From the NCBI GenBank assembly GCA_963555755.3, contig OY820905.2, positions 2,784,001 through 2,848,000 on the forward strand: a stretch of DNA of 64,000 nucleotides. Direction: 5' to 3'. Both the position numbers and the translations under genes were made by a program. Source of the DNA: Nitrospirales bacterium (GTDB taxonomy: Bacteria > Nitrospirota > Nitrospiria > Nitrospirales > UBA8639). Below are positions 4,024 to 38,414 of the stretch, one piece after another (the stretch's first letter is position 1; every line of letters starts with the position of its first letter). Below the pieces are notes generated by a model. The model was not told where the DNA came from. It ran no database searches and was given only the letters and a program-made list of their open reading frames with translations.

Positions 4024-4050
4024 TAACCAAGAAAACCAAAGGAGAACACC

Positions 4051-17904: not shown

Positions 17905-17973
17905 AAATCTGCACAATAAGGAATGGTTCAACAGGTTGGAGGAAGATAGATTGTTTTTTAGGGAATTATTTTA

Positions 17974-18169
17974 TGCAGGGTTTCGTCCCCGCGCGACGAG
18001 TCACTTTTGTTTCGGCAAAAGTGACCAAAACCAAGTTCGCCCGTGCGCGGCCCCAAGGGGGTCCCTCCGCCTCCGCACCGAATAAGATGGCTCAGGAACT
18101 CGCTCCGCTCAAACAGCCTTCGCCAAAAAAGCCGATTCGGTACTACGGCTCCGCCGCGCCCAACGCGGG
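17974..18169 (+). repeat. Family E repeat E2 (alpha subtype)
   Basis: Homologous to E1 and E5. Confidence 0.9.
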
Positions 18170-18322
18170 TAGAGCTAGACTTTTGATATTCTTACAAAAC
18201 TCTTAACAAAAGATCTGCCTCCAAACCTTAACGACAGCCGATGAGTTTCATTGTATAGGGAATTCTAAGGGCTTATACTACGCAAACAGAAAGCCCAGAT
18301 CTTTCCCTGCACATTCGAATTA

Positions 18323-18536
18323 GGGACTGTTGAATATCTCATACACAGATCCCATAAATACGCCGGGGAAGACGACCAACATCAGTGAGAGGAAATGTTC
18401 AAAAAAGCATGCCCTGAGTCTTTCCGAAGGGTCTATCCAGCAAGGCCGCAGCCCTTTGGACGCGCAGAGCGTACTCTCAGTAGGTGAGCACGGCAAAAGG
18501 GCGAGAACGCCGCTGGTGACTTTTTTCAACATTCCC
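18323..18536. repeat. Family D element, extended form with nested mini-hairpin
   Basis: Core 18391-18536; extra GGGACTGTTGAATA end; insert at 18408-18431. Confidence 0.85.
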
Positions 18537-18571
18537 AATAATTAAGTGAAAATTAATCAGGACATATATTA

Positions 18572-19300
18572 ATGAAGGGTGGTTTAACCAAATCCCAGGT
18601 TGACCGACTCGGGGACAAATTAAGAAATAATCTGCATAATGAGACAGACCTAAAATTGCTTGATGAATTTCGTAGATCATTTCATGAGGCGTACAAAACA
18701 GCAATAAATACTATACGTGATCGGACCAATATAGAACCCACTGGCAGACCAGCTAAGTCTACAAGTGCAATTATCGAGAAACTTAAACGAGAAAGTATTC
18801 GGCTCAGCCAAATTCAAGATATCGCGGGATGCAGAATCGTAGTGGCTACAATTATTGAGCAAAACGTGGTCGTCTCTTCCCTATACGAAGCTTTTCCAGA
18901 GAAAATTATAGTTGACCGTCGACTTAAACCCAGTCACGGGTATCGGGGAGTTCATATCATCTCCCAGATCAACGAAAAACCTATTGAAATTCAAGTCCGA
19001 AGCACTTTGCAACACCTATGGGCTGAATTTTCTGAGAAGTTGTCAGACGTTGTTGACCCCAGTATTAAGTATGGGGGTGGAGATGCTATAGTTCGAAAAC
19101 TGCTCCAAGATTGCACCTTACTTGTAGAGGAAATAGAAAGAATCGAATTAGGTATTGCGGGTCGAAAGAAGAAAAAATTAGACAGAAATAACAAAATTCA
19201 GTTGGAGGATTTTCAAGGCAATGTAGGAAAGATTAAAAACAAAATGGCAAAAGAACTCAAGAATTTTATAAGAGAATATTCAGAGTTATCGGAGCAATGA
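18572..19300 (+). CDS. RelA/SpoT synthetase-domain protein (SAS), CapRel/PhRel-like putative toxin
   Basis: RPAKS..IIEKL, QDIAGCRI, GYRGVH, EIQVRS.LQHLWAE; no hydrolase domain. Confidence 0.88.
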   Translation: MKGGLTKSQVDRLGDKLRNNLHNETDLKLLDEFRRSFHEAYKTAINTIRDRTNIEPTGRPAKSTSAIIEKLKRESIRLSQIQDIAGCRIVVATIIEQNVVVSSLYEAFPEKIIVDRRLKPSHGYRGVHIISQINEKPIEIQVRSTLQHLWAEFSEKLSDVVDPSIKYGGGDAIVRKLLQDCTLLVEEIERIELGIAGRKKKKLDRNNKIQLEDFQGNVGKIKNKMAKELKNFIREYSELSEQ

Positions 19301-19303
19301 GAA

Positions 19304-19546
19304 ATGATTTTTTTAATGGAATACGATCGATCAAAAGGAGAGTTAGTGAAATTCACCAGCTTCCAGGATGCTGACCGAACGAAAGCTGAAAATCTAAGGT
19401 TAAAGATTGAGATGGAGCTTCATAAACTTCATCAAGAACGAGAAATAGTATTATTAGAAGCTCCTAGTGAAGACGCCCTCCGTCGTACACATCGACGCTA
19501 CTTTGAAAAAGCAAGTCAGATAGGCCAGTCTGTGAGCGAAGGCTAG
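19304..19546 (+). CDS. Small protein, putative antitoxin of the upstream SAS
   Basis: Starts 3 bp after the SAS stop; EIVLLEAPSEDALRRTHRRYF resembles the CapRel C-terminal antitoxin region. Confidence 0.7.
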   Translation: MIFLMEYDRSKGELVKFTSFQDADRTKAENLRLKIEMELHKLHQEREIVLLEAPSEDALRRTHRRYFEKASQIGQSVSEG

Positions 19547-19687
19547 CAATCTGCTCAAGCTGACTTTTTGAGCAGCGTATGGTTTAGAATGAATGTTGGG
19601 TGAGAAAAAATCTGCATAAATCCCCGTTTGATTTCCCATCTCCGCGCCCCGGTTTAAAAATTTGATTTGTTTCTTGCTTATCTCCTC

Positions 19688-19882
19688 CGCCTTCGGGCGC
19701 GGCGGAGCTGCGGTGCCGAATTCGACTATTCGGCGAGGGCTGTTTGAGCGGAGCGAGTTCCCGAGCCATTTAATTCGGCACCGGGGCGGAGTTCACCCGT
19801 AGGGACGCGCACGGGCGAAAATGGTTTTGGGTCCTTTTGCCGAAACAAAAGTGTCTCGTCGTGCCGGGGCGAAACCCGGCAT
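19688..19882 (-). repeat. Family E repeat E3 (beta subtype)
   Basis: TGTTTGAGCGGAGCGAG; closest to E4. Confidence 0.9.
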
Positions 19883-19950
19883 TAATAAAAACCAAACCAC
19901 TTTGTATACTGAGATGAAATTGAAAAAGATTGAGAAGGGAAAGACTCTAC

Positions 19951-19984
19951 CTCCCCTCACCCCTCCTTACAAAGGAGGGGGGAG
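19951..19984. repeat. Small REP-like hairpin
   Basis: CCCCTCCTT-ACA-AAGGAGGGG; could also terminate the minus-strand operon. Confidence 0.5.
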
Positions 19985-20045
19985 AAGAGAGACAGTTTTT
20001 TATAAAGGCCGAGGTTTTACAGGATAAGGCCTCAAAGGTTGAAGC

Positions 20046-20291
20046 TTAATCGTCGTCATCATCATCGTCGTCATCATCGTCGGCTTCCAGCGCTTCCTGC
20101 CGCATTTGCTCTTCCATTGCATTGTGAATCAACAAACGGAAGAACATCGAAATGACTGACCCTTTTTCCAGAGTCCCACCAGGTGGGACAGCAATCCGGC
20201 CTTCTTCCACCATTTTATCCAGCCACTTTTTTTGGTCTGGTGTCACGTGGACCGGTATTTCAATTAAGGGAATTCTCCCAAACATATCCAT
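20046..20291 (-). CDS. Small hypothetical protein with poly-Asp tail
   Basis: AAGGAGG RBS; 11 C-terminal Asp. Confidence 0.75.
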   Translation of the reverse strand: MDMFGRIPLIEIPVHVTPDQKKWLDKMVEEGRIAVPPGGTLEKGSVISMFFRLLIHNAMEEQMRQEALEADDDDDDDDDDD

Positions 20292-20334
20292 GACAGAAAC
20301 CTCCTTAACAATTCCGTAAAAAAGAAATTAAATT

Positions 20335-21144
20335 TTATAATCCCAGAACATCAGCCATGCCGTACAATCCTGGCGGCTGACTCACTACCCATTCTGCTGC
20401 ACGCAAGGCTCCTCGCGCAAATGGGTCTCGATTATGGGCGCGATGCGTAATTTCAATTCGTTCCCCAGGCCCGCCATACAGCACGGTATGGTCGCCAACG
20501 ATATCACCGGCTCGAATAGTTTGAATGCCGATTTCTTTCTGTGAACGCTCACCAATGATGCCATGGCGTGAATACACGCCGGTTTCTTGGAGATCCCAGC
20601 CCTTGGCTGCAGCCAAGGCTTCTGCGAGTTTCAGAGCGGTTCCGCTTGGGGCATCCTTCTTCTTGTTATGATGCGCATCGATAATTTCCAGGTCATAGTC
20701 GTCGCCTAAGGCTTGGGCCACTTTCCCAATGATCTGGAGCAGCACATTGATCCCCACGCTCATGTTTGGAGCTTGCACACAGGGGATTAACTCGGCGTGC
20801 TCCCGAAGCTGAATCATTTCATCAGGAGAAAATCCTGTGGTGCCGATGACCATGGCGCGTTTGTGCTGGACGGCTTGAGTAAGATGGTTCAGCGTAGCAG
20901 TCGGTGAAGTGAAATCGACTACGACATCGGCCTGAGGCAGCGTCTTGGCTAGATCATCTATTAAAGTTACATTAAGATGTCCACACCCGGCCAAGTCCCC
21001 GGCGTCTTTTCCAAGGTCCAGGTGTCCTTTCGCTTCGGTCGCTCCGGTGAGTTGTAGGCTAGCCGACTCTTTGACAAGGGAAACCAAACGTTTACCCATT
21101 CGCCCGGCGGCTCCGGTGATGATGACTTTGGTTGGGGAAGCCAT
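20335..21144 (-). CDS. dapB: 4-hydroxy-tetrahydrodipicolinate reductase
   Basis: GAAGRMG, GTTG, HHNKKKDAPSGTA. Confidence 0.96.
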   Translation of the reverse strand: MASPTKVIITGAAGRMGKRLVSLVKESASLQLTGATEAKGHLDLGKDAGDLAGCGHLNVTLIDDLAKTLPQADVVVDFTSPTATLNHLTQAVQHKRAMVIGTTGFSPDEMIQLREHAELIPCVQAPNMSVGINVLLQIIGKVAQALGDDYDLEIIDAHHNKKKDAPSGTALKLAEALAAAKGWDLQETGVYSRHGIIGERSQKEIGIQTIRAGDIVGDHTVLYGGPGERIEITHRAHNRDPFARGALRAAEWVVSQPPGLYGMADVLGL

Positions 21145-21151
21145 AATGGAT

Positions 21152-22024
21152 TTAGATCAGTCCCGATTCTTTCATGACCTGACGAAGGCGTTCACGGTTG
21201 TCTGATGAAAGCGGTGTGAGGGGAAGGCGAAGTTCTGGATCGATTTTGTTCATCATGGCCAAGGCTTCTTTGACAGGGATGGGGTTGGTCTCATAGAACA
21301 AGGCGCTGAACAACGGAGCGAGTTTAAAATGATACGTGCGCGCTTCGGCAAAGTTCCCAGCCAGGGCGGCATTCACCAGGTTCGCCATGTCTTGTGGCGC
21401 CACATTGGCGGTCACCGTAATCACGCCTTTGGCCCCAAGCGCCATCATCGGAAGGGTCAGCGGATCATCCCCAGAAAGAATTAAAAAATCTTCCCCGCAT
21501 TGGTGAATGATCTCGGAGACTTGGCCGAGTGACCCACTGCCTTCTTTAATACCGACCACATTGGGTATTTTTGCGGTACGCGCGATGGTGGCTGGAGTCA
21601 TGTTCACGCTGGTTCGACTCTGAATGTTGTAAAGAATCAAGGGAAGATCCACCGCTCCGGCCACGGCAGCATAATGTTGATACAGGCCTTCCTGTGTGGG
21701 CTTATTGTAATAGGGCGTAATCAGCAGAGCGCCATCTGCGCCTACCTGTTTCGCCTGTTTGGTGAACGCAATCGCTTCATCGGTAGCATTTGATCCGGTG
21801 CCGGCGATGACCGAGACCCGTCGATTTACGATCTCCACGGTCACTGCCACGACGCGTTCGTGCTCCTCGTGCGACAGCGTGGCGGATTCGCCAGTGGTTC
21901 CGCAGGGGACAATGCCATGCGTGCCGTTGGCAATTTGCCATTCAATTAAATCGGCGTATGCTTGTTCATCGAATTTGCCGTTTTTAAACGGGGTGACGAT
22001 GGCGACGAGTGATCCGGTAAACAT
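21152..22024 (-). CDS. dapA: 4-hydroxy-tetrahydrodipicolinate synthase
   Basis: GTTGES, PYYNKP, YN..SRT, GIKE. Confidence 0.96.
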   Translation of the reverse strand: MFTGSLVAIVTPFKNGKFDEQAYADLIEWQIANGTHGIVPCGTTGESATLSHEEHERVVAVTVEIVNRRVSVIAGTGSNATDEAIAFTKQAKQVGADGALLITPYYNKPTQEGLYQHYAAVAGAVDLPLILYNIQSRTSVNMTPATIARTAKIPNVVGIKEGSGSLGQVSEIIHQCGEDFLILSGDDPLTLPMMALGAKGVITVTANVAPQDMANLVNAALAGNFAEARTYHFKLAPLFSALFYETNPIPVKEALAMMNKIDPELRLPLTPLSSDNRERLRQVMKESGLI

Positions 22025-22055
22025 GCGGTATCCTAATCTGTCCTTTTCAAAAGGA

Positions 22056-23315
22056 CTAGTTGAGAAATTCAGGAATCTGCTCTCCGAGTATCAGGTCTTC
22101 ATAACTTTCACGCTTACGAACAACAAAACTTTCGCTTTCTTTCACCAAAATCTCCGGGACCCGTGGTCTCGAATTATAATTGGAAGCCATGGTGAAGGCA
22201 TAGGCTCCAGCGCTCATAACCGCCAGGAGATCTCCGGCTTTGGCCGAGGGCATGGTTCGGTTTTGGGCGAGAAAATCACCGGATTCGCAAATTGGTCCGA
22301 CCACGTCATACACGTCTTCAGGCGCATTGGGCACTTGGTGTACCGGCAAGATATCATGGTGCGCTTCGTACAGGCTTGGGCGAATTAAATCGTTCATCGC
22401 CGCATCGACAATGGCAAACTTTTTCGCGCCGGTATCTTTGATGTACAAGACACGGGTTAGCAGGATACCGGCATTGCCGACGATCACCCGCCCCGGTTCC
22501 AGAATAATTTCACATTCCGATTCTCGAAGCAGGGGCGTAATGGCTTCGGCCAAATCCTTGGGATGAGGTGGCGTTTCGTCTGAATACGTAATTCCCAACC
22601 CTCCACCAATGTTGAGATATTGAATCGGAATTCCCTTGCTCTTCAGGGTGTGGATTAACCCCAACACTTTGGTTAAGGAATCGACGAAAGGACTGATTTT
22701 CGTCAGTTGTGACCCAATGTGTGCATGGAGGCCCACGACTTGGATGTTGGAAAGAGACGCAGCGTGTTGGAATTCCTCTAATGCCCGGTCTGCACCGATC
22801 CCAAATTTACTTTTTTTCATCCCAGTCGAAATGTAGGGATGGGTTTGTGGATCGATATCCGGATTAACCCGAAGGGCCACTCGCGCGCGCATTCCCATTC
22901 CCCTGGCCACCTCGTTGATAGCCTGTAGTTCTGCCGACGATTCCACGTTAAAAAACAGGATATCGGATTCCAGGGCATATTGAATTTCTTCGTAACTTTT
23001 CCCCACCCCCGCAAAGACCATCTTGTTGGGAGGAATGCCGGCTTTTAAGGCGCGAAAAAGCTCCCCGCCCGAAACAATGTCCGCCCCGCTTCCCAGAGAG
23101 GACATGAGTCGCAAGACTGCTAAATTGGAATTGGCCTTCATGGCGAAGGCGATGATATGTGGTACCGATGCAAAGGCTTGGTCATACGCTTGGAAGTGTC
23201 GAGTTAACGTAGCATGGCTATAGATGTAGCAGGGCGTGCCCTGTTCCTTGGCAATTCGTTCGAGCGGAATGTCTTCACAGAACAGGGAATCGTTGTGATA
23301 GTGAAAATGATGCAT
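22056..23315 (-). CDS. lysA: Diaminopimelate decarboxylase
   Basis: AMKAN, HIGSQ, EPGR, GPICESGD. Confidence 0.96.
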   Translation of the reverse strand: MHHFHYHNDSLFCEDIPLERIAKEQGTPCYIYSHATLTRHFQAYDQAFASVPHIIAFAMKANSNLAVLRLMSSLGSGADIVSGGELFRALKAGIPPNKMVFAGVGKSYEEIQYALESDILFFNVESSAELQAINEVARGMGMRARVALRVNPDIDPQTHPYISTGMKKSKFGIGADRALEEFQHAASLSNIQVVGLHAHIGSQLTKISPFVDSLTKVLGLIHTLKSKGIPIQYLNIGGGLGITYSDETPPHPKDLAEAITPLLRESECEIILEPGRVIVGNAGILLTRVLYIKDTGAKKFAIVDAAMNDLIRPSLYEAHHDILPVHQVPNAPEDVYDVVGPICESGDFLAQNRTMPSAKAGDLLAVMSAGAYAFTMASNYNSRPRVPEILVKESESFVVRKRESYEDLILGEQIPEFLN

Positions 23316-23406
23316 CGTGTGGAAACTCTTCTCAATAATAGTTCGAAGTCAGAGTTGCTTAGGGTCCGCAAAGAAATAAGTAGTACCTTTATTTCTTTAC
23401 GAACCC

Positions 23407-23652
23407 CTATTGTGTGCCAATGGGTCGGAGTGGTGGCAAAGACACATTCTCCTGGTCGATGGGAACTATTTCTTTTTCACCGTTTTCTATTGCGTTTGCC
23501 TCAGCTTTTTCTTGCGAACGGATTTTGGCTTCAATCCCAATGTCTTCGGGGGCAAGCGGTGGCCCCACGACACCACAACTTTGCACGATGAATATCATCC
23601 CGCCAAAAAGCAGGGGAAAAATGATACGTTTCATGGTCAATGGAAATGTCAT
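23407..23652 (-). CDS. Small lipoprotein (LptM/LppL-like position before lysA)
   Basis: VQSCGVVGPP lipobox. Confidence 0.65.
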   Translation of the reverse strand: MTFPLTMKRIIFPLLFGGMIFIVQSCGVVGPPLAPEDIGIEAKIRSQEKAEANAIENGEKEIVPIDQENVSLPPLRPIGTQ

Positions 23653-25148
23653 ACGGAGGTTTTTTTCTTCAGACGCTGTTCCCAGGATTTTAACTGTCGA
23701 GCCACTTGTTTTCGAGCGGTTCCGCCAATTTGTGCTTTTCGATCAACGGCTCCCTCAACCGTCAAAAATGTCAAGGCCTTCTTGGTAAAGCGAGGAGAAA
23801 TAACCTGAAGATCCTCAAGAGAAAGGTCCCCAAGTTCTCGCTTATTTTTAATGCAGGTTTGCACCAGTCGCCCCACAATGCTGTGCGCTTCTCGAAAGGG
23901 CACGCCTTGTTGAGCTAAATAGTCGGCTAATTCCGTGGCCAATAGGAAGCCCGACCCTACCGCATTCTTCACCACATCCTGGCGCACACGAATTCGTTGA
24001 ATCAACTCCGCGTAAATCGTGAGCGAATCTACCACAGTTTGGAGGGCATCAAAAAGGGGTTCTTTGTCCTCTTGGAGATCGCGATTATAACTCAAAGGCA
24101 ATCCCTTGAGAGTCGTCAGGAGCGTGATGAGTTGACCGTACACTCTCCCGGTTTTGCCGCGGATGAGCTCAGGCACGTCCGGGTTTTTCTTTTGTGGCAT
24201 CATGCTGCTACCGGTACAAAATGCATCTGGCAATTCCACAAAGGAAAATTCTTGAGACGACCACAAAATAAGTTCTTCACTGAGGCGAGAAAGATGCATC
24301 ATGATCAAGGAGAGGACGCTCAGAGTCTCAGCCACATAGTCGCGGTCGGAAACCGCATCGAGGCTGTTCTGACTCAATGCGGGAAAGTCCAACAGTTTGG
24401 CGGTGAACCTTCGATCAATCGGATAATTTGTCCCCGCAAGGGCCCCGGAACCTAATGGCATGACATTCACACGACGCAAGGCATCGCTAACCCGGGTTTT
24501 ATCTCGTTCAAGCATTTCCACATAGGCTAGGAAATGATGAGCCAAGGACACTGGTTGGGCACGTTGGAGATGGGTATAGCCAGGAATGATGACGTTGATA
24601 TGCTGATTGGCCTGTTGAACAAATGCCGATTGCACGGCCTGTAAATGGCCTTGCAGCACTTGAAGCTGATCCCGCAAATACAAACGCAAATCGAGGGTGA
24701 CTTGGTCGTTCCGACTGCGTCCTGTGTGGAGCTTTCCGCCTAATGGCCCAATAAGTTCCGTTAAACGTCGCTCCACTGCCATATGAATATCTTCATCGCT
24801 GTCGGCAAAGGAAAAGCGATCTTCTCGTAATTCGGTTCGAACGCGGGTCAGGCCACGAGTCAATTTTTGACATTCAATACGAGACAGAACTTTGGCCTTC
24901 TCAAGAGTCTGACAGTGAGCAATGCTCCCTTGAATGTCGTATTCAAAGAGTTTTTTGTCCACAGGCAGAGAAGTGGTAAACCGCTCAACGACCGCATTGG
25001 TGGCCTCGGTGAATCGGCCTCCCCATGCTTTGGATGCCGTGGCCTTTGGTGTGCTGGGTGACAGAGAGGAAGACTTTTTCCGTGAGGTTCGTTTGCCCTT
25101 GGAAGAAGTTGACGCTTTCGTTTGAGGCATCTGATTGGGTGATTTCAT
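23649..25148 (-). CDS. argH: Argininosuccinate lyase
   Basis: [26 protein letters not shown]. Confidence 0.97.
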
Positions 25149-26443
25149 TTTTGCCGCGAGACCTTCTTTTTACCCCCGGCTGGTGAGCGAACCGTGCGTC
25201 GTGTCTTGCCGGTGGCTAATCGCAGGGCATTGAGACGGATAAACCCATTCGCATCGCGTTGATCAAACCCTTTATCTTCCTCAAAGGTCGCGAGATCCTC
25301 CCGGTACAAAGAGAGAGGCGACTGACGTCCGGTAAGCATGCAATTGCCTTTGTACAATTTCAATCGGACAGTGCCGCTCACTCGCCGTTGGGCCTCATCC
25401 ATGGCCTTTTGCAACATCACGCGTTCCGGAGCAAACCAGTATCCGTAGTAGACCAGTTCTGCATACCGTGAGATGAGGCTATCTCGCACATGCAGCACCT
25501 CCCGGTCCATCGTTAAAGACTCAACGCCTCGATGGGCTACATGAAGGATGGTGCCGCCCGGCGTTTCGTACACGCCGCGGGACTTGATCCCCACATACCG
25601 ATTTTCCACTAAATCGACACGGCCAATACCGTGCTTTCCCCCGAGTTGATTAAGATGAGCCAGCAAAGTGGCTGGGGACATCCGCTTGCCATTCACGGCG
25701 ACTGGGTCGCCTCGTTCATACATGATTTCGATGGTCTGCGGTGTATTCGGCGCGTGCTCTGGCGAGACCGTCATCTGAAACATAGATTCAGGTGGCGCTT
25801 TCCAAGGGTCCTCTAAAATGCCCCCCTCGTAGCTTATATGAAATAGATTGAGGTCCATGCTGTAGGGTTTCGCTTTGGTGGCCGTGACCGGGATATGGTG
25901 TTGTCTAGCATACCGAATCAGATCCTGCCGTGAACGGAACGACCAGTCTCGCCACGGGGCAATGATTTTAATAGTGGGATCGACAGTCATATAGGTCAAT
26001 TCGAACCGAACCTGATCATTCCCTTTGCCCGTCGCACCGTGGCTTACCGCCTGCGCGCCTTCCTTTTTGGCAATTTCAATTTGCCGCCGTGCAATGAGTG
26101 GCCGAGCAATGGATGTGCCCAACAAATAGCATCCCTCGTACACCGCGTTCGCACGAAGCATGGGGAATACATAATCTTTGATAAAGGTCTCTCGAAGGTC
26201 TTCAACATACACTTTCGAAGCCCCGACGGCGACGGCTTTCTCTTTGATGGCCTGGAGATCTTCGGCTTGACCAAGGTCCGCACAAAAGGCGATGACCTGA
26301 CACTGATACTCCTCACGAAGCCACTGCAGAATGACCGAGGTATCCAGACCCCCGGAGTAGGCGAGCACCACTTTTTTAATAGGGTTGCCCTCAGATGCGG
26401 ACGAAGGCTTCTTTTTTGAGCCTGATTTCTGACGAGCACTCAT
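25145..26443 (-). CDS. argG: Argininosuccinate synthase
   Basis: [31 protein letters not shown]. Confidence 0.97.
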
Positions 26444-27441: not shown

Positions 27442-27455
27442 GGTGATTTGGGAAC

Positions 27456-27537
27456 CGTAACGCGTGAAGCGTAAGGCGTTATGCGAAAGACTAAAGTACT
27501 GCTTTTACTCATTACGCATCACGCTTTACGGATCACG
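27456..27537. repeat. Inverted heptamer-repeat hairpin
   Basis: CGTAACG CGTGAAG CGTAAGG ... CATTACG CATCACG CTTTACG GATCACG. Confidence 0.75.
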
Positions 27538-27541
27538 GGTT

Positions 27542-28735: not shown

Positions 28736-28921
28736 ATCGTATAAGTCCGCGTCAATAGAGGCGAATCTAACATAGGGGTTCTCAGAGGCGCAATATGAAT
28801 GCCATGGATGATCGTCGTTTGTCTCTCGTCGTCCGTATCTCGTAAAAAACGAAAAACGAAATACGCAAGACGAACCCCCGAACCTTGTTCCTGTTGTGGA
28901 AGGATGCTATAACCCCGCGGG

Positions 28922-29593: not shown

Positions 29594-29652
29594 GGTTTTT
29601 TCAGGTGGCACCGGATCATCTGTTCGGAGGAGGCGTGGATCGAGTGGGATCG

Positions 29653-30462
29653 TTAGCTTTTTTCCGATACGGAGAGTTGCCAAGCGAACCAGGGCTGAAA
29701 CCATTGATAATCGTTTTGATAGGCTGTGTGGATACCGTGAGTGCCTTCGGCTTTCTCATTTAACGTCGTAAAGGTTCGAGGCCAGTTCTTGGTCCACCAG
29801 GATTTGAGTTCGCCGGCGCTGAAGGGCTGGTCGTTGGGTTGATAGATACCGGCGGCAGCCACGATATCGGCAATGAGCGGCCAATAGCGATCCTTGCCCA
29901 TGCCCAGAGCCCGGAAATGTTCCCGCAATAAAAAGACCACCCAGAGTTCCGCGCTGTGTTTTTTATTATGTTTAAAAGGCTGGGTTTGTCGTAGGGGGAT
30001 CGGGTGAAAGTTTTTGATGATCGAGGTGAAGTCCGGGCCGCCGTAACTGCCGGCGATTTGGGCAATGCCTTCTAGCATTGTCGCCAATTCAACCTCAACA
30101 ATGGGTGAGGCGGCGGGTTCTTGTTCAAACGGGTTGGGTGTCGTGAGAAGATCGATGAGAGGTTTGAGCTCACGCAACCTGACCACAGCCAATTGCAAGA
30201 TGTGCGAAGATTCAAGCCAGTAGTCCGTGTCATGTTTCGAAAGGCGCTCTCGTCCGGCTGGAGGCAAGACCACCGGGATCCAATGCCGCAACAGGACAAA
30301 CAAAATGTAATGGATATCCCCCTTGACCTCGACAATGTGGTCAAGCACTCCGTTGCCCTGGGCCTCATGAAAAAATCGTTGGGCCTTGTCTTCCACCCCA
30401 AGGTGTTGGGCTAACGCCACCCACCAATCAGCTTGAGGCTGAGGAGTTTGAAGGTCAGTCAT
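29653..30462 (-). CDS. Hypothetical protein
   Basis: 269-aa ORF filling the gap; no recognised motif. Confidence 0.65.
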   Translation of the reverse strand: MTDLQTPQPQADWWVALAQHLGVEDKAQRFFHEAQGNGVLDHIVEVKGDIHYILFVLLRHWIPVVLPPAGRERLSKHDTDYWLESSHILQLAVVRLRELKPLIDLLTTPNPFEQEPAASPIVEVELATMLEGIAQIAGSYGGPDFTSIIKNFHPIPLRQTQPFKHNKKHSAELWVVFLLREHFRALGMGKDRYWPLIADIVAAAGIYQPNDQPFSAGELKSWWTKNWPRTFTTLNEKAEGTHGIHTAYQNDYQWFQPWFAWQLSVSEKS

Positions 30463-30626
30463 AGAGGCTGTTGCGTACTGGCGGATAAATGGTGTGAGGT
30501 CGGTTCATCTCCAAGCGTAAGTGCATGGTACGAGGTGGCTGATGGCAACGCAAGTCAAAGTTGAGGTGTGCTCAGGTTTCTTCGCCAGACCATGGCGAAG
30601 GTTGAATCTGATCGGAGAAAGGTCAC

Positions 30627-31232
30627 ATGAAACAGATGGTGCTGCTTCGACATGGAGAGTCGCAATGGAATCTCGAGAATCGATTCACGGGTTGGGTGGA
30701 TGTGCCCTTGAGTCCTCGTGGTGAGCAGGAAGCCAAGGAGGCTGGCCAAAAATTGCAGACCTTTCGGTTCAACCATGCATTTACCTCAGTCCTGACTCGC
30801 GCCATAAAGACCCTCGAGTTTGTTCTGGAGGTGATCGGGCAAACGGATCTCCAGGTTGTAAAGCATCAGGCGCTGAACGAACGAAAGTATGGGGAACTCC
30901 AAGGGTTAAATAAGGCCGAGACTGTTGAAAAATATGGCGACCACCAGGTCAAACTGTGGCGGAGAAGTTATGATGTGCGGCCACCCGGGGGGGAGAGTTT
31001 GCAGGATACGGCTGAACGTGTGATCCCATATTATCAGGAGAAGATTTGGCCGATTCTTTCAAAAGGCGAGTCTATTTTGGTTGTTGCACATGGGAACAGT
31101 TTGCGCGCATTGGTTATGCATCTTGATCAACTACGCCGGGAAGAGGTTCTGGAATTAAATATTCCAACAGGGGCCCCATTGCTCTATGAACTTGATGATG
31201 AGGGTAAAATTCTGAGTCATCGATATTTATAA
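30627..31232 (+). CDS. gpmA: 2,3-BPG-dependent phosphoglycerate mutase
   Basis: LRHGESQWN..NRFTGW, AHGNSLR. Confidence 0.95.
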   Translation: MKQMVLLRHGESQWNLENRFTGWVDVPLSPRGEQEAKEAGQKLQTFRFNHAFTSVLTRAIKTLEFVLEVIGQTDLQVVKHQALNERKYGELQGLNKAETVEKYGDHQVKLWRRSYDVRPPGGESLQDTAERVIPYYQEKIWPILSKGESILVVAHGNSLRALVMHLDQLRREEVLELNIPTGAPLLYELDDEGKILSHRYL

Positions 31233-31252
31233 CGTTGTCGAAACTCCCTCCT

Positions 31253-31759
31253 TCAAGGCAAGTTGTCAGGGCTGAACCCCTCTTCGATCTCGGCGGCGGC
31301 CTGTCCGATTTCTTCCATAGGCACCAAGTCTAGTAGCAGAACCAGGAGCTTGTGTTCTTCTCCTCGGGGAATGGTTCCTTCTGATTCTAAGGTGCCAGCC
31401 ACTTGGGTTAAGATAGCGATAGGCTCACCTCCCTGATTGCCCATGTGGTCCCAGGCTTTGTGCTTCGTCTCTATGTCCGAGAAGAATTGTTCAATGGGCC
31501 GGTGCACGAAGCCAAATCGGCTTTCCCACCGTTCTCGGACCTGTGTTTGAACATGCTCCCAGATTTCCTTTCCTGCCTGCTCGGGGATGCCGACTTGTAT
31601 GGCACGTTTGATCCAGTATGTTGAAAGCAGCACAATTTCCCAGGTGATGGATTGGGCCTGTTCCTGAGATACCGTAAGGCCATAGTCCTCAAAGAAATCT
31701 GGTGCAATGGCGGGAGGGATTACGTTGAATAGGGTTTCAGCGCCTTGTTCGTGGGCCAT
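31253..31759 (-). CDS. Hypothetical protein
   Basis: 168-aa ORF. Confidence 0.65.
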   Translation of the reverse strand: MAHEQGAETLFNVIPPAIAPDFFEDYGLTVSQEQAQSITWEIVLLSTYWIKRAIQVGIPEQAGKEIWEHVQTQVRERWESRFGFVHRPIEQFFSDIETKHKAWDHMGNQGGEPIAILTQVAGTLESEGTIPRGEEHKLLVLLLDLVPMEEIGQAAAEIEEGFSPDNLP

Positions 31760-31790
31760 ACAAACGGTGTCCTGGGGAACAAATATATCC

Positions 31791-31981
31791 AGGGAATGTT
31801 GAAAAAAGCCGCCAGCGGCGTTCTCGCCCTTTTGCCGTGCTCACGTACTATGAGTACGCTCCGCGCGTCAAAAGGGCTGCGGCCTTGCTGGACGGACTTT
31901 TTTGAACATTCCCTCTCACTGACGATGTGGGGCTCATCTGGAGCGTGTATTGGCTATTGACGCGAATTATTCAACAGCCCC
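31791..31981. repeat. Family D element, extended form
   Basis: Core 31791-31914 with TIR GGGAATGTTGAAAAAAG; tail ends ATTCAACAGCCCC. Confidence 0.88.
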
Positions 31982-32135
31982 ATCCAGCATACGAAGGTGT
32001 GGCTTCATGGTGCAAGCGTGTTCCTTGACACTGAAAGTTTTCTAATGCCAGGCTTTCTTCTAAGAAAAGGGGGCGCGGTACACATTCATTGAACGCCTTT
32101 TCTGGTTACATCTTGCTAGAAATTCGACGAGGGGA

Positions 32136-32525
32136 TTGATGGCTGCTTTATTCCTATTTGGTGCAATTAGTTTGACCTGGGGTGTGATGGGATTAATGAT
32201 GACCCTTGCGCCTACGGCATGGATCGCCTTTGCTAAGAAGGTGTTGCATGATCCCTGGCAACGATTTTGGATGGCCCAGGGGATGCTCGTGATTGGATTG
32301 GTGTTAATCATTGGCACCCCCACGCTTCAGGGATATTGGCTGTGGGTAGGATGCGGAATCGTGGTGGTAGTCAAGGCTTGCATCCTCCTGGGGTCAACAG
32401 AGGCATTTCGTGATCGATGGACGACCCTGGCCACTACCAGGCCGACGTGGGTGTATCGAAGTGGCGGCATCCTGTCGTTGGTGATCGCTGCTTGCCTTGC
32501 GGCGGATACGATTCTCCATGGCTGA
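32136..32525 (+). CDS. Small membrane protein (about 4 TM)
   Basis: Hydrophobic 129-aa ORF. Confidence 0.7.
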   Translation: MMAALFLFGAISLTWGVMGLMMTLAPTAWIAFAKKVLHDPWQRFWMAQGMLVIGLVLIIGTPTLQGYWLWVGCGIVVVVKACILLGSTEAFRDRWTTLATTRPTWVYRSGGILSLVIAACLAADTILHG

Positions 32526-32835
32526 CCTCACTCCAGACCTTTCCAGTGACTCTTCCCTGCTTTCCTCTTTGTGGCAGGTGCATCAATCGGCGGAATGGCC
32601 GGTTGCCGGGAATGCCCATGAGGGCGAGTTGATGACGTTGGATACGGTCGTGGCCGGCTGTGTCACGTATTATGTGGAGGAGCATGGCCTTGATACCCAA
32701 CGGGTGGGAATTCTCAAGGACTGCTTAGCCGATCTAGAGAATTTGTTGCCGGACTTGGAGCCCGATCCTCAAGCCTATTTCGAACGGCTTCTACAGCTTG
32801 GAGATTTGCTCCTGAAGCTTACCCTTGTTGTTTGA
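32518..32835 (+). CDS. Hypothetical protein
   Basis: Start MADLT overlaps the end of the upstream gene. Confidence 0.65.
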   Translation: MADLTPDLSSDSSLLSSLWQVHQSAEWPVAGNAHEGELMTLDTVVAGCVTYYVEEHGLDTQRVGILKDCLADLENLLPDLEPDPQAYFERLLQLGDLLLKLTLVV

Positions 32836-32935
32836 GAAGGCGTGTCCAAGCTTTCCCTAAAAAATCCCCTTCTTGTTTGCCCTTCACTCTTGCCTCATCT
32901 TAGATAGAAAAATCACCGGCAGCCCTATCAGGCTC

Positions 32936-33231
32936 TAGGAGCCTGTCCGAGATTAGCGATCGTAGCGAGGATGTGCTGGTTTGAGTCAGATGTTTCGATC
33001 GTTTGAGGCAAATAGTGGGACTATTCAACGAAAACAGGGAAGGTTGAAAAAGGCCGTCCAGCAAGGCCGCAGGGCTTTTGGCGCGCGGAGCGTACATGGA
33101 GTACGTGAGCACGCCAAAAGCCCGAGAACGCAGCTGGCGGCCTTTTTCAACATTCCCCGAAAAGGATCGGAAGATCTGGCCACCTCCAGCGCATCCGAAG
33201 TAGATTCGTCTAATCTGAGGCAAGTTCATAG
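32936..33231. repeat. Family F element interrupted by a family D insertion
   Basis: Both halves match the reverse complement of 743-892. Confidence 0.8.
33035..33157. mobile_element. Family D MITE with CGAAAA target duplication
   Basis: CGAAAA at 33029-33034 and 33158-33163; single copy in the uninterrupted F element. Confidence 0.8.
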
Positions 33232-33250
33232 GCAGGGGTTTCCGACAGTT

Positions 33251-34042
33251 CTATGCGATCTCTATTTCTTGGCCTTCGGACAGAATGTGAAGATTGGAAA
33301 TACCCAATCCCTTCAATTGATCAGCAATCCGATGCCGAAATTGGGGTTTGAGGTGGTAGACATACACTGGCAGGTCAGGCTTTCCGATTTTTTGAAATTC
33401 TTCCTGCAATAGGCTCGGGGTGAGATGTCGGCTGGCTAAGGCCAAATCACTCATTTCGTCAGGGAGGGATGTTTCAATAAACGCGGCTTTGAGGTTCGGG
33501 ACTTCCGCCGCCGCACGCCAAAGGGCATCTGTCTGATGCGTATCACTGCTCAAGACCCATCCTACATGCTGATCCCGGATGATCAATCCCACGGTAGGCA
33601 CGAGATGGTTGACCGAAATCGGCGTCAATCGTACATCGCCCAATTGACTTTCTTGCCCTTCGTGGAGGACCTCGGTTCGAAGAATAGGGTGTTCTGAGTC
33701 GGGTAATGCAAAGAAGTTCGGAAAGATCACATCATTAAAAATATGCGCCTTTAGATCTCCGAGGACCTGTGGAATGCTGGCGACCGTAACCGAATTGGTA
33801 GTACAACTAATGAGATTGTCAGCTAAGGAGGGAAGTTCTTTGAGATGATCAATATGGGTATGTGTAAGAACGATATGCCGAATCCGTTTTTGGGATTCTA
33901 AGTTTAACGCGGAAGAAACCGTGCCCGCGTCAATCATTAACGAATCATTGACAAGGAAGCCGATGCTTCGGCAACAGTGTTCTTCTCCCCGCTCATGGGT
34001 GAGGGAGTCTGATCCGTGGCATCCGAGGATTTTTATGTTCAT
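33251..34042 (-). CDS. Class II cyclic-nucleotide phosphodiesterase (MBL fold)
   Basis: LGCHGS, THTHIDH, IFNDVIFPNF, HLKP. Confidence 0.85.
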   Translation of the reverse strand: MNIKILGCHGSDSLTHERGEEHCCRSIGFLVNDSLMIDAGTVSSALNLESQKRIRHIVLTHTHIDHLKELPSLADNLISCTTNSVTVASIPQVLGDLKAHIFNDVIFPNFFALPDSEHPILRTEVLHEGQESQLGDVRLTPISVNHLVPTVGLIIRDQHVGWVLSSDTHQTDALWRAAAEVPNLKAAFIETSLPDEMSDLALASRHLTPSLLQEEFQKIGKPDLPVYVYHLKPQFRHRIADQLKGLGISNLHILSEGQEIEIA

Positions 34043-34213
34043 GGACAATCCATTCCTTTGGAGGCCTGGTGTTGTAATAGTTATCATTACATGAAACTAG
34101 GGCGTTCGTCACTCCTGGGCAGTGATCTTTGTCACAGAGAAGCAAAGAACTGGGTTTTGCGAGAAACACAGGTCCTGCGAGAGATGCCTGCCTTTTTATT
34201 CCCACAGTCTTTT

Positions 34214-34257
34214 GGGACCTTCCTTCGACAGGCTCAGGACAGGTTTTGAACAGCCCC
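34214..34257. repeat. Partial family D end with nested CCTTCGACAGGCTCAGGACAGG hairpin
   Basis: Ends TTTTGAACAGCCCC; same arrangement at 40771-40811. Confidence 0.6.
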
Positions 34258-34453
34258 TTGTCCTCCTGAAAATTGTGCGAGTTGGGCAGTTGTCCCTAAT
34301 TTGAAAATTTTTTAAATTATCAATACCTGTTTGTCACGGAACTCGTGTCCGGCAACCCAATTCCTTCTTGTTTGACGCCCTGAAAAAACCTGTGGTATCG
34401 TGATTTTTCTGTTCTAGACCGTTGAAAAATAAGCTGAAATTGCGAGCCAGACT

Positions 34454-35368
34454 ATGGGAAAAGACTTAAAAGAAATCCTAGGGAAACTAAAGTATACCGA
34501 CGATGCGAAGGTGATCCAACAACTCACCGCTCATACCAAGCACGTGCATGATCGCATGTCAGGCATCAAGCACAAGCTCGTCATCATGAGTGGCAAGGGC
34601 GGGGTTGGCAAGAGCATGACCACGGTCAATTTGGCTTTGGCCTTGGCTCGACAGGGCAAAAAAGTAGGGATTATTGATGTTGATCTGAACGGACCTTGCA
34701 TTCCCCAGATGATGGGGATTCATGGAAAAGGCCTTGAAATTACCCCGGAAGGCGCGCGACCACCGGAAGGCCCCTATGGCATAAAAGTGGCGTCCATGGA
34801 TTTCCTGCTCAGTGAAGCGGCACCTGTTCGGTGGAAAGGACCCATGGATTTGAGTCCGGTTTGGCTCGGGCTCATGGAAATGAATGTCATTCGTGAGTTC
34901 CTCGCGGATATCATTTGGGGAGAGCTGGATTTTCTGCTGGCGGACCTTCCTCCAGGAGCAGCGGCTGATAAACCGCCGGTCATTGCCGGCTTCCTTCCGG
35001 ATCTGGCCGGAGCCGTGGTGGTCACCACGCCATCGGAAGTCGCGTCGAATGTCGTGCAGAAATCGATTGGCTACGCCACCGAACTCGGCATTACAGTCCT
35101 GGGCGTCATTGAAAACATGAGCTACTACCGGTGCCCTTCTTGTGGTGAAGAGAACGAATTATTCGAAGGCAACACAGAAGGCATGTGCGAAGCGTTGAAC
35201 CTGCCATTGCTTGGCCGCATTCCCTTTGATCGCGACTTTGCCAAAACCTTTGATAAAGGCATCCCGTTGTTGGATGATCAACATCCGACCATTCAGCGCT
35301 ATCAAAATATTGTTGGACGAATCCAATCGTTATTGGATTACAAAAAAGTTCTGGCTGAGAAGCTATAA
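34454..35368 (+). CDS. Mrp/NBP35 (ApbC-like) P-loop ATPase
   Basis: SGKGGVGKS, DLPPG, ENMS..CPSC. Confidence 0.9.
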   Translation: MGKDLKEILGKLKYTDDAKVIQQLTAHTKHVHDRMSGIKHKLVIMSGKGGVGKSMTTVNLALALARQGKKVGIIDVDLNGPCIPQMMGIHGKGLEITPEGARPPEGPYGIKVASMDFLLSEAAPVRWKGPMDLSPVWLGLMEMNVIREFLADIIWGELDFLLADLPPGAAADKPPVIAGFLPDLAGAVVVTTPSEVASNVVQKSIGYATELGITVLGVIENMSYYRCPSCGEENELFEGNTEGMCEALNLPLLGRIPFDRDFAKTFDKGIPLLDDQHPTIQRYQNIVGRIQSLLDYKKVLAEKL

Positions 35369-35422
35369 TGAGTGGTGTAACCCGAGCTTCTCTCAATCCC
35401 AACTCTCCTGTGTGAGGACGTT

Positions 35423-36166
35423 ATGAAATTTGTCTGCTTAAATTGCGAAACGTATATGAATTTTGAAAAGGTTGAAAAGCCTGCCGAAGGGACACTTGGT
35501 GTGTTTTTCGCCTGTCCGTCCTGTGATGCCAAAGTGTCGATGGTGACCAATCCGGGGGAAACCCAAATGGTCAGTACTCTTGGGGTACAACTCGGCGGAC
35601 GCACCGTCGATGCTATACCTCTGGAAATGACGCGGGGAACCTTAAAAGAGGAAGTGAGTGCCCCGGCAGACTCAGCGTCCATGGCTGCCTATCTCAATGA
35701 CAAAATCCAAGCGGGGGAAAGTGCAGCACCGGCTGGAGCGACAACCGCGAAGGAAGGCGAAGGAGGTTGTCCCTTTTCCGCGATAGTCGCGCAGATGGGA
35801 TTGACCACAGGCGGCACCTCAACCGGAACTCAACAATCCGATCTTCAATGGACACCCGATGCGCAAGAGCGTTTAGGCAAACTCCCCTCCTTTGTCCAAC
35901 CCATGGTCAAAGGCAGTGTCGAAACCTATGCAAGGAAGAATAGCTACACCACTGTGACGCTCCAAGTCATGGATGATTCGAAGAATAATACATCGGATGG
36001 GATGAATTGGTCTCCTGAGGCCGAAGAGCGGCTGAAAAATATTCCAGACTTCATTCAACCCATGGCCCGAAAAGAAATTGAGCGTATAGCCCAAGAGCGT
36101 GGCGTGACTACCATCTCCGCAGAACTCATGGACGAAGCCAAAGACAAGTTCATGAAGTTTATGTAA
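35423..36166 (+). CDS. CxxC/CxxC protein with two C-terminal PCP_red-like repeats
   Basis: CLNC...CPSC; WTPDAQERL.KLPSFV and WSPEAEERL..IPDFI. Confidence 0.75.
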   Translation: MKFVCLNCETYMNFEKVEKPAEGTLGVFFACPSCDAKVSMVTNPGETQMVSTLGVQLGGRTVDAIPLEMTRGTLKEEVSAPADSASMAAYLNDKIQAGESAAPAGATTAKEGEGGCPFSAIVAQMGLTTGGTSTGTQQSDLQWTPDAQERLGKLPSFVQPMVKGSVETYARKNSYTTVTLQVMDDSKNNTSDGMNWSPEAEERLKNIPDFIQPMARKEIERIAQERGVTTISAELMDEAKDKFMKFM

Positions 36167-36185
36167 CGCGGATTCAATAGATCCT

Positions 36186-36218
36186 AAAAAAGGCGGCTCA
36201 CTTGAGCCGCCTTTTTTT
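36186..36218. terminator. Intrinsic terminator, possibly bidirectional
   Basis: AAAAAAGGCGGCTCA-CT-TGAGCCGCCTTTTTTT. Confidence 0.85.
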
Positions 36219-36236
36219 GTTCATTTTTTCACGTTT

Positions 36237-36268
36237 GTCATTCCCGACATCCTTTATCGGGAATCCAG
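36237..36268. repeat. REP-like hairpin GTCATTCCCG...CGGGAATCCAG
   Basis: ATTCCCGA / TCGGGAAT palindrome. Confidence 0.6.
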
Positions 36269-36278
36269 AATTTATTTT

Positions 36279-36473
36279 ATGCGGGGTTTCGTCCCCGCAC
36301 GACGAGGCACTTTTGTTTCGGCGAAAGTACCCAAAACCATGTTCGCTCGTTCGCGTCCCTGCGGGTAAACTCCGCCCCGGCACCGAATTAAATGGCTGCG
36401 CAACTCGCTCCGCTCAAACAGTGCTCGCCGAATAGTCGAATTCGGCACCGCGGCTCTGCCGCGTCCGAAGGCG
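36279..36473 (+). repeat. Family E repeat E4 (beta subtype)
   Basis: Closest to E3, including the inward flank. Confidence 0.9.
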
Positions 36474-36704
36474 TGGGAGATACTCAAAAAACAAATAAAG
36501 TTTTTTAACGGGAGGCAGGGAGACCGAACCATAAACGCAATTCTCATGCCTCTGATCTAAGTTCTGGTACTTGGATTATTAGCTGATATGTGGCATTGAT
36601 AGACATGCTCCCTTCTCGAATTTCCTTCTTTTTTCGGCACAGATAAATTTGGTAGGCGCCCATGAGCCCCAAAAGTTTTCCTCTACTTAAGGAGAAAAAA
36701 TAAG

Positions 36705-38036
36705 TTGGCAATTTGTCTAGCTATTTTCCTAATTGCTTTTAATCTATTTATCCCACCCCCAGCGATAGCCGTGGATTTTGAGGATATCCCACCCTCTGTT
36801 CGGCAATCCGTAATCCGGCTTTCAGGAAATTCAGGGTGTGCGACGGGGTTTATCGTTGGAAATCAAATCGTGACAAATGCCCACGTGACAGAAAAACTTT
36901 GTCCTTACGGAGAATGTGATCCCATCACGGTTAAAATACTGGACTCGGTAGAAACCGAATCCTGGAAATATTTAAAAAACCAAGAGGCCGTAATGGTACA
37001 AGAAGTTCCTACCTTAGACGTGGCTCTGCTTAAAATACCGAGCATCACCCAAAATTCAATTTCACAAACCAGTTTTTCTTCAGCGAAAATTGGTGGCCAG
37101 GTCTATATTTTAGGGTTCCCAAGTTGCGGGGACATTACGCTGACAGAAGGCAAAATTTTGGCAAAAACCCCCACTGGATTCCGCACCTCCGCTTTGACAA
37201 AAAAGGGAAGTAGCGGCAGTCCGGTCTTTAACCAAAACTTTGAGATCATTGGGGTCGCAATGCAAAGTAGCAGTCTTATAGGCGGAATTGCCTCGTTACC
37301 TTTTAACACTTCAACACCTACCGATTTTGTAGATATAGGCTATACACAGACTGTTCTCTGGTCTAAAGATTCAGAGTTAGCCCTTATCGAAATGAAAATC
37401 TTAAATTCCATATACCGTGATTTTGTCGTCTCATCAAAAGGCCTAGATCGAATGCGTGCCAGCTTTGACTTCATTATGGCCGCAGATGTTGTATTGCGAC
37501 GTTCGTCATTTTTTCTATTGGACAAGGGAACCCTGTTTGCCCTTTTTGCTGGACGAGAAAATTCTCTGAATTTTTTAAGACATCCGTTTAAGCCCTCAAG
37601 CCCGGAATTGCTAGAAGCCGAAAAACTTGGGACGGCCTTTGCCTTGGAAGTGTATGGGTTGCACGATGAAACCTTTGAGGAGATTGATGTTCCTGCCCTT
37701 CTTGAGAACCTACGAGATTCCGGGCGTTCTCGCCATCATGCTCAAAGTCTTGAAGAACTTATTTCATTGGCACAAGTCCATAAACCCGCTAATTGGATTT
37801 TTTCAATTTTATTATTCTTTGGGTTTGGGTTGTCCTTACTTGCGGCATGGGGATGGTCCTTAGGTTATGTCTTTAAAGCCGCTAATGGCTCCTGGCACCT
37901 TCGAATTCTAAAAATGATGGTGATAGGTTTGATGTTGTGGCCTTTATCGTTGATTGCATTCTGGCTGATGAATAAACCACAACAAATTCCTGAGCCCACC
38001 AATTCCACTAACCCATCGAATCAGGGGATTCACTGA
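36705..38036 (+). CDS. Trypsin-like serine protease with signal peptide and C-terminal TM helices
   Basis: Triad motifs IVTNAHV, DVALL, GSSGSPV; start uncertain. Confidence 0.8.
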   Translation: MAICLAIFLIAFNLFIPPPAIAVDFEDIPPSVRQSVIRLSGNSGCATGFIVGNQIVTNAHVTEKLCPYGECDPITVKILDSVETESWKYLKNQEAVMVQEVPTLDVALLKIPSITQNSISQTSFSSAKIGGQVYILGFPSCGDITLTEGKILAKTPTGFRTSALTKKGSSGSPVFNQNFEIIGVAMQSSSLIGGIASLPFNTSTPTDFVDIGYTQTVLWSKDSELALIEMKILNSIYRDFVVSSKGLDRMRASFDFIMAADVVLRRSSFFLLDKGTLFALFAGRENSLNFLRHPFKPSSPELLEAEKLGTAFALEVYGLHDETFEEIDVPALLENLRDSGRSRHHAQSLEELISLAQVHKPANWIFSILLFFGFGLSLLAAWGWSLGYVFKAANGSWHLRILKMMVIGLMLWPLSLIAFWLMNKPQQIPEPTNSTNPSNQGIH

Positions 38037-38077
38037 GGGTTTCAGGCTATAGTCCCTGTGTGGCTATTTTTTCTTAC

Positions 38078-38270
38078 CGCCTTGGGGTGCGGCGGAGCCG
38101 CAGCCCCGAATCGATTTCTCGGCGAGGGCTGTTTGAGCGGAGCGAGTTCCCTCGCCATCTTATTCGGGGCGGAGGCGGAGGGACCCCATGGGCCGCGCAC
38201 GGGCGGAAATGGTTTTGGGTCCTTTTGCCGAAACGAAAGGACCTCGTCGCGCGGGGACGAAACCCCGCAT
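38078..38270 (-). repeat. Family E repeat E5 (alpha subtype)
   Basis: Closest to E2 (GGGGTCCCTCCGCCTCCGC.CCGAATAAGATGGC). Confidence 0.9.
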
Positions 38271-38414
38271 AAAATAAAACACCGCTGGATTCCTGCCAGC
38301 AACTTCGACAATAACTCAAATTGGATGAAAGATCCTGAGTCGAAGTTCGAGGAGAAATTTATTTGAAAGTGGTTAGAGAAAAGAAGTCCAGATGGACGGA
38401 AGGGAATCGATTTC

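Follow-up and report, generated by a model that had tools for sequence, protein, structure and literature searches.

A ~205-bp repeat of a Nitrospirales genome forms inward-facing pairs around accessory genes and may be the arm of a mobile doublet

A 64,000-nucleotide stretch of a Nitrospirales bacterium genome (GenBank assembly GCA_963555755.3, here labeled G000; contig OY820905.2, here C1, positions 2784001-2848000) was analyzed and is referred to as the window; G002, G003, G005, and similar labels denote other genomes compared with it. Five copies (E1 to E5) of a ~205-bp repeat, termed E, were found in the window, with the conserved loop motif of the repeat detected five times compared with 0.02 expected by chance. 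The copies lie at two sites: (i) E1, E2, and E3, with pheT at one end and the dapB side at the other, surround a BrnT/BrnA cassette, a RelA/SpoT-domain gene, and an 80-aa open reading frame (ORF); and (ii) E4 and E5, flanked by a PCP_red gene and a bamD-like gene, surround a gene for a trypsin-like peptidase. E2 faces E3 and E4 faces E5, and we suggest, with somewhat better than even confidence, that E is the arm of a non-autonomous mobile doublet that resembles the repetitive extragenic palindromic (REP) doublets known as REPINs, collects cargo in its interior, and is reshuffled by host recombination among ~120 copies.

A profile search of G000 returned 144 matches corresponding to 124 E loci, two of which were on contig C2, a duplicate of part of C1. 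Among neighboring copies less than 7 kb apart (n = 49), 20 were found to face inward, 3 outward, and 26 in the same direction (P = 0.0005); 43 independently sampled Nitrospirales loci yielded 6 inward, no outward, and 11 direct arrangements. The ORFs between copies (92 scanned) included many toxin-antitoxin genes (HigBA, ParDE, BrnTA, and PIN among them) as well as GNAT, glyoxalase, HNH, HEPN, ORF6N, and transposase genes, to which the relatives add TIR and FRG genes, and BLAST comparison of 14 cargo proteins, drawn from three slots across six genomes, gave no similarity. The slot behind the PCP_red gene carried E copies in G002, G008, G009, G013, G014, G016, G102, and G125, being the only place with clear E-pattern matches in G013 and G016, and carried no E in G003 or G018. 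Homologues of the trypsin-like gene were found in 2 of 114 other genomes of the family, both of another genus and both in this slot. This cargo was less diverged at 4-fold sites than its flanks in G102 (0.44 versus 0.63, P = 0.001; P = 0.12 in G125), which suggests that it was transferred into the same slot. The PCP_red-bamD gap of G005 is without the E4-E5 unit and was considered as an empty target; it retains ~16 nt of an E start and is therefore a scar rather than a target. In genus g11 (loci L086 to L088), a RelA/SpoT-domain gene pair was observed beside a repeated coding-like stretch, which seemingly serves as its flank instead of E.

Alignment of 44 copies revealed five covarying helices: hairpin 1, hairpin 2 (10-bp arms and a 6-nt core), an outer stem, an 18-bp long stem, and an inner stem. 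In these helices 85% of the cells were paired and 216 both-sided changes were counted, compared with 77 after shuffling and at most 37 in slid registers, in a control that did not fully remove the relatedness of the copies. In four helices A-C mismatches exceeded G-T mismatches (48 versus 11), an indication that the reverse (bottom) strand is the one that folds. The reverse strand of E5, folded as DNA, gave z = -2.5, while the top strands of E2 and E4 gave z = -1.75 and z = -0.29, respectively. The 20-nt terminal loop was near-invariant in 80 copies save for two central bases and reads GCGNAGC on the bottom strand in most of them (12 of 80 break the rule); d(GCGNAGC) is a stable DNA mini-hairpin according to passages of PMC13037366. 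Distance correlations among 73 copies resolved four largely unlinked blocks, namely hairpins 1-2, a linker, the long stem, and the end with its tail. The possibility that the tail invariably moves together with the entire 3′ half was rejected, as only the last ~16 nt were clearly linked to tail family (P = 0.0005), with weak linkage of hairpins 1 and 2 (P = 0.02 to 0.03) and none of the stem. No terminal inverted repeats were detected within a single E.

Evidence that doublets recur, exchange parts, and collapse was obtained by comparing loci. Three doublets of G000 (copies 35-36, 57-58, and 118-119) were found to share a ~250-bp spacer, the spacers being 76-81% identical to one another and, with one G005 locus included, 76-87%; the same-side 3′ halves were 86-89% alike and partner halves 79-81%. 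When 20 loci of G005 and G006 were mapped on G000, several had the outer flank of one site and the inner DNA of another. In the clearest case, the FitA/PIN cassette occurred at a different locus in G005 together with the 3′ half and tail of copy 115, and ORF6N DNA was bounded by E in both G002 and G000, again at different loci. A pattern of two copies fused in hairpin 2 was detected at 20 sites in 9 of 115 genomes, by a search able to detect hairpin-2 joints only (hairpin-1 collapses also exist). By eye, 17 of the 20 had mismatched arms and are therefore likely scars joining two copies, and 9 of 11 inspected were full palindromes. Two G006 scars join flanks of sites that are distant in G000, and where G000 has the collapsed site 101/102, G003 has a filled pair containing a TIR gene. 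A reciprocal excision junction was found in none of the 115 genomes and in no metagenome record. When four sequence runs, all of them contigs and one (X1) possibly from the source sample, were mapped, the joints proved repeat-driven and uninformative; low cargo coverage in the sediment runs was not used as evidence.

Close E matches came from Nitrospirales or Nitrospirota records, and strong full-length model matches among 141 Nitrospirota genomes were confined to the family of G000 itself. The exact loop and inner-stem pattern was detected in at least 120 stretches of the genome collection spread over many phyla, including Stenotrophomonas, Polaromonas, Silvimonas, Thioalkalivibrio, Desulfobacula, Barnesiella, Thermoclostridium, and Acidobacteriota records; viral contigs gave 0 and 1 matches. 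Several of these loci had the full E architecture, and 4 of 34 had an inward partner and none an outward one. In Thioalkalivibrio ALJ21, four ~800-bp doublets at four loci were 83-90% identical end to end, with same-type arms 95-100% alike and partner arms 70-74%. All four combined one A and one B arm; unlike ends are therefore real in young doublets, and descent from a founder doublet is the simplest account. The ~800-bp doublet occurs at many more loci across the genus, occupies a gap measuring 11 bp in other species, and has its inner part flipped at the same site between G266 and G269. In several other Thioalkalivibrio genomes (L341 to L347), the gap holding the E-like doublet was observed to hold a different inverted-end element of ~280-370 bp instead. 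No target duplication was visible in the flanks read at the four ALJ21 doublets or around the G000 doublets; for neither set was there a near-identical strain with a clean empty site. No description of the E family was found in the literature searched, chiefly open-access text outside figures and supplements.

The proposed reading draws on the inward polarity, the covarying helices, accessory cargo at conserved slots that differs in relatives, the presence of the same doublet at several loci, hybrid copies, and collapsed sites. In this view, two ~205-base copies face one another as in an oversized REPIN and would spread as a unit; E would fold as single-stranded DNA from its bottom strand, and an enzyme acting in trans would mobilize the doublet. 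Cargo could then be (i) exchanged between slots by homologous double crossover; (ii) inverted or deleted via host recombination between E copies; or (iii) lost by replication slippage between two hairpin-2 copies, in the manner of Tn10 nearly precise excision, a copy-choice deletion between short repeats inside long inverted ends. Unlike arms would descend from the founder doublet and be scrambled later.

Several observations weigh against this proposal. Y1 genes, as candidates for the mobilizing function, were bracketed by an E pair in 0 of 17 cases in G000 and flanked by E at 0 of 39 loci in 11 other genomes, where fragmented assemblies could hide one, and G003, G009, and G042 have many E copies and no Y1 gene. 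All Nitrospirales sites that were examined are old, and none was a clean new insertion. Intact pairs account for only about one third of the typed copies, the pair in the PCP_red slot of G008 is direct rather than inward, and homologues of the RelA-like gene occur without E flanks, leaving the first entry of cargo unexplained. Inward clusters were favored at convergent gene gaps (10 of 17 compared with 237 of 1,376), a distribution that independent insertion could also yield, and the residual relatedness of copies in the covariation control must be added to this list.

The earlier note on this DNA had divided the copies into alpha and beta subtypes and proposed that each inverted pair combines one of each, with the two ends functionally asymmetric. 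The motifs it quoted are present, alpha in E2 and E5 (with an alpha arm also in E1) and beta in E3 and E4. The homologous inward flank of E3 and E4 was confirmed as well (86% match across 242 nt, flank included), but this flank is not beta-specific, as its tail family of 14 members (two of them duplicates) was also found behind alpha and delta-type stems. Clustering of 84 copies resolved at least four stem types, one dominant and several minor, and 87 typed C1 copies (one recent duplicate excluded) comprised 65 alpha, 5 beta, and 17 other. Both window pairs are alpha/beta, but the rule fails genome-wide: 14 of 20 inward neighbors had both stems typable, of which seven were alpha/alpha, four alpha/beta, two alpha/other, and one beta/other. 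The mean stem distance between partners in G000 was 0.230; drawing random copies gave 0.247 (P = 0.75) and reshuffling the partners 0.234 (P = 0.64), and true partners were thus not more unlike than reshuffled ones. Reshuffling with full sequences of the pairs located in fetched loci, a subset of the pairs of each genome, gave P = 0.89 for 13 pairs in G003 and P = 0.29 for 12 pairs in G002; an earlier G002 test with stems typed by eye had given P = 0.0135, and its pairs were later corrected in part for missed copies. All five beta copies sit in inward pairs, compared with 28 of 87 copies overall (P = 0.003), and because of this the four alpha/beta pairs appear enriched against all copies (P = 0.012) and not against paired copies (P = 0.59). 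This residue may reflect the survival of older or less self-similar pairs. A post hoc rule pairing AACGC-ended with AAGGC-ended partners appeared strong in G000 and failed by eye in G003 (7 of 13 mixed) and G002 (5 of 14 mixed).

Stem type was not linked to the outer hairpins or the 3′ end, and it was found to switch at orthologous sites. The orthologue of E3 is alpha in G005 (~95% identical to G000) and alpha-like in G003. Read by eye, the first hairpin of E3 is that of the dapB-side copy of G003, while its beta stem matches the rplT-side copy of G003 and G002; at the dapB site G005 has an alpha copy whose tail matches G000 copy 66 near rplT. A ~57-kb inversion between two E copies in the G000 lineage is the simplest reading of this apparent hybrid, and one of the two window pairs would therefore owe its make-up to rearrangement. 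The thrS-infC-rplT block was observed apart from pheS-pheT in G000 (window 15239-16945 and C1:2856767-2860142) and faces pheS-pheT across an E slot in G003 and G002. A single recombining long-stem block exists in alpha, beta, and other allelic forms, which do not mark left and right ends. The narrow alpha/beta claim is of little interest alone; what remains of the wider idea is that the pair is a unit with arms that can differ, as the repeated doublets indicate; descent from a founder doublet explains the unlike arms without invoking a functional need for them.

Of the other explanations, the one that survives best, though we find it improbable, is that E serves a dedicated, integron-like but dispersed cassette system as its recombination site, with a recombinase acting on the folded bottom strand and exchanging cassettes between slots. 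Integron attC arrays hold toxin-antitoxin-rich cassettes separated by structured repeats that fold on one strand, and E is similar in its cargo, its 20-nt loop conserved across phyla, and its strand-biased mismatches; in addition, hairpin 2 is the joint in the 20 collapsed sites, and ~660-bp insertions, of intron size, lie directly behind it; IIC introns target attC-type sites. However, there are several breakpoints rather than one, the hairpin-2 joints were the only kind that the collapse search could find, the reciprocal junction was absent from the genomes and metagenome records searched, the attC-type array of the genome is without E, and no recombinase family was found to recur beside E copies. 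Y1 transposases, tyrosine recombinases, and GIY-YIG genes were considered as the cognate enzyme and none fitted; the xerC- and xerD-like genes near some copies look housekeeping by size and context, and the IS4-like, IS110, and IS200 genes in or near E are insertions with their own ends (transposase families were searched in part). A more ambitious version, in which E would be a cross-phylum family of single-stranded DNA sites with a 20-base loop read by a dedicated enzyme, facing pairs being docking slots for toxin-antitoxin and defense cassettes and the unlike arms of young units giving direction, we regard as similarly speculative.

It is more doubtful still that single E copies insert independently behind gene ends, with facing pairs as chance products of convergent gaps, in which accessory genes gather as well. 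The 5′ neighboring gene points into E for 67 of 99 copies, the clusters favor convergent gaps as noted, and many copies are solitary. Counter to this, solitary copies between co-directed genes were oriented 9 to 10, with no influence of the upstream gene, whole doublets with shared spacers occur at separate loci, and cassettes reach new loci together with their E half. An alternative in which E acts as a structured RNA or as a 3′ regulatory element, its pairing being incidental, is very unlikely: strong covariation alone cannot separate RNA from DNA, but no Rfam covariance-model match was found for E, no full terminator pattern was detected on its hairpins save for one weak match in E2, the copies tolerate insertions the size of insertion sequences, miniature inverted-repeat transposable elements (MITEs), and introns, and the bottom-strand loop of most copies fits the DNA mini-hairpin described in PMC13037366. 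Least credible is the model of the earlier note, obligatory left and right ends as in asymmetric transposons, which accommodates the two window pairs, the pairing of all five beta copies (none with another beta), the eye-typed G002 test, and the A + B arms of all four ALJ21 doublets, but not the 7 of 14 alpha/alpha pairs, the loss of the G002 signal with full sequences once missed copies changed some pairs, or the type switches at orthologous sites.

The features of the window and examples of insertions into E elsewhere in the genome are collected in Table 1. A 2.58-kb insertion sequence encodes a 792-aa DruA/DUF4338 + DDE_Tnp_1 protein and has 12-bp inverted ends with a ~10-bp duplication; 6 of its ~12 copies are inside E, five of them at the central CCC..GGG mini-palindrome. 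Contig C2 was 99.98% identical to C1:4141231-4153174, but its counterpart of E114 carries this insertion sequence, a difference that may stem either from recent insertion in a fraction of the population or from the assembly. The same central point of E is also the insertion site of a ~120-bp hairpin repeat (window families D2/D5/D6), and elements of 21-30 bp were observed in the loop and beside the stems.

Table 1. Positions of E copies, cargo, and other features. Positions are those of the window unless prefixed with C1.
Feature	Position	Strand	Remarks
E1	17005..17208	+	alpha-type; 5′ hairpin end faces pheT
BrnT toxin gene	17405..17695	+	Pfam PF04365; cargo flanked by direct copies E1 and E2
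BrnA antitoxin gene	17692..17904	+	Pfam PF14384; BrnT cassette
E2	17968..18173	+	alpha-type; left arm of first inward pair
Conserved terminal loop of E2 long stem	18099..18114	+	motif also at 17135, 19742, 36404, 38131
Second repeat family (D3/D8) copy	18354..18540	.	within E2-E3 slot
RelA/SpoT-domain cargo gene	18572..19300	+	in 5/115 family genomes; homologues without E flanks
80-aa cargo ORF	19304..19546	+	travels with RelA/SpoT-domain gene in homologous DNA
E3 inward tail	19610..19682	-	tail family common to E4, alpha copies, and delta copies
E3	19683..19887	-	beta stem; likely hybrid
Short palindromic repeat, GTCATTCCC...GGGAATCC type	36237..36268	+	just outside E4; also beside other E copies
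E4	36274..36478	+	beta-type; left arm; slot behind mrp-PCP_red operon
Trypsin-like peptidase cargo gene	36705..38036	+	homologues in 2 genomes of another genus, same slot
E5	38073..38275	-	alpha-type; right arm; 5′ end faces bamD/YfiO-like gene
Transposase domain	50736-51506		IS1595-family (ISXO2-like)
Thiamine pyrophosphate (TPP) riboswitch	56644-56745	-	upstream of thiC
At least three more dispersed repeat families (D1, D7, D9/D10/D16)	743-1095, 3538-4025, 5550-5766, 49311-49472, 58433-58594, 62335-62506		intergenic
2.58-kb insertion sequence, examples	C1:1962179-1964756, 3296386-3298963, 3637257-3639834, 575944-578521
~120-bp hairpin repeat in E, examples	C1:833870-833990, 1961101-1961222, 4142335-4142453 and others
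~660-bp insertions	C1:823940-824596, 3131338-3131999		just behind hairpin 2
Partial integrase gene, then attC-type cassette array with insertion sequences	C1:319000-331000		without E
98-aa GIY-YIG gene	C1:2204228-2204446		between arrays of short TGTCATTTCGAC-type hairpins, like Ssn locus

If the mobile-doublet reading is correct, E would represent a seemingly uncatalogued repeat family that organizes the placement of toxin-antitoxin and defense genes, its loop being conserved not only in Nitrospirales but also in Proteobacteria, Bacteroidota, and Bacillota; its ~100 scattered sites would be interchangeable slots, and large inversions would apparently be seeded by E. The invariant loop could serve as direct bait for the enzyme, and the young Thioalkalivibrio doublets offer a place for mobility tests.

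Among known systems, the two arms of the doublet match the terminal inverted repeats of a MITE, and REPINs with their RAYT transposases are the closest counterpart; according to passages of PMC3116915 and PMC3337134 they replicate as inverted doublets, are predicted to form single-strand hairpins, leave singlets when they decay, and are non-autonomous, features that E shares. REPIN arms are REPs of 20-40 bp tagged with GTAG (or CGTC), whereas E arms are ~205 bp with five helices; E doublets measure ~650-800 bp when empty and reach ~5 kb when they hold genes, and E was not seen flanking any RAYT. No terminal GTAG was present in the 44-copy alignment; a CGTC was noted on the bottom strand, in the segment separating hairpins 1 and 2. 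The notion that REPINs carry toxin-antitoxin cargo was not borne out by the literature passages searched and was set aside. TIRtrons and the TIR families (Di Nocera 2013, PMC3733652) are, in the described portions, long, partly self-complementary repeats occurring as dimers or clusters, as is E, and are reported from Pseudomonas and Stenotrophomonas, where an E-like doublet also occurs (L128). They are defined there by a flanking tyrosine transposase gene, and no such gene was seen for E; these families may include E itself or a relative of it.

Integron attC sites differ from E in that E has no RYYYAAC...GTTRRRY ends, forms inverted pairs rather than a direct-repeat array, occupies ~100 dispersed sites, and has no linked integrase. 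The NTS/SRM repeats associated with the Ssn nuclease (PMC11893778, in part) are single-strand hairpin repeats like E, and such repeats often adjoin it; their consensus was matched once in the window (39641) and never in E, and the repeats around the Ssn-sized GIY-YIG gene of this genome are of other kinds. Tn10 nearly precise excision, as outlined in sections of PMC12524634, fits the collapsed sites of E only, E pairs being without a transposase. The minimal mobile elements of Neisseria are presented in excerpts of PMC3787668 as fixed sites between conserved genes with variable content and homologous exchange; E slots are alike in their variable content, and the mosaic copies and low-divergence cargo appear to fit homologous exchange in the flanks. 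Where E slots differ is that their flanks are a dispersed repeat, and cassettes can therefore also move between non-orthologous slots. By the features tested, E fails membership among REP, attC, and SRM repeats and is REPIN-like in its unit and minimal-mobile-element-like in its slots.

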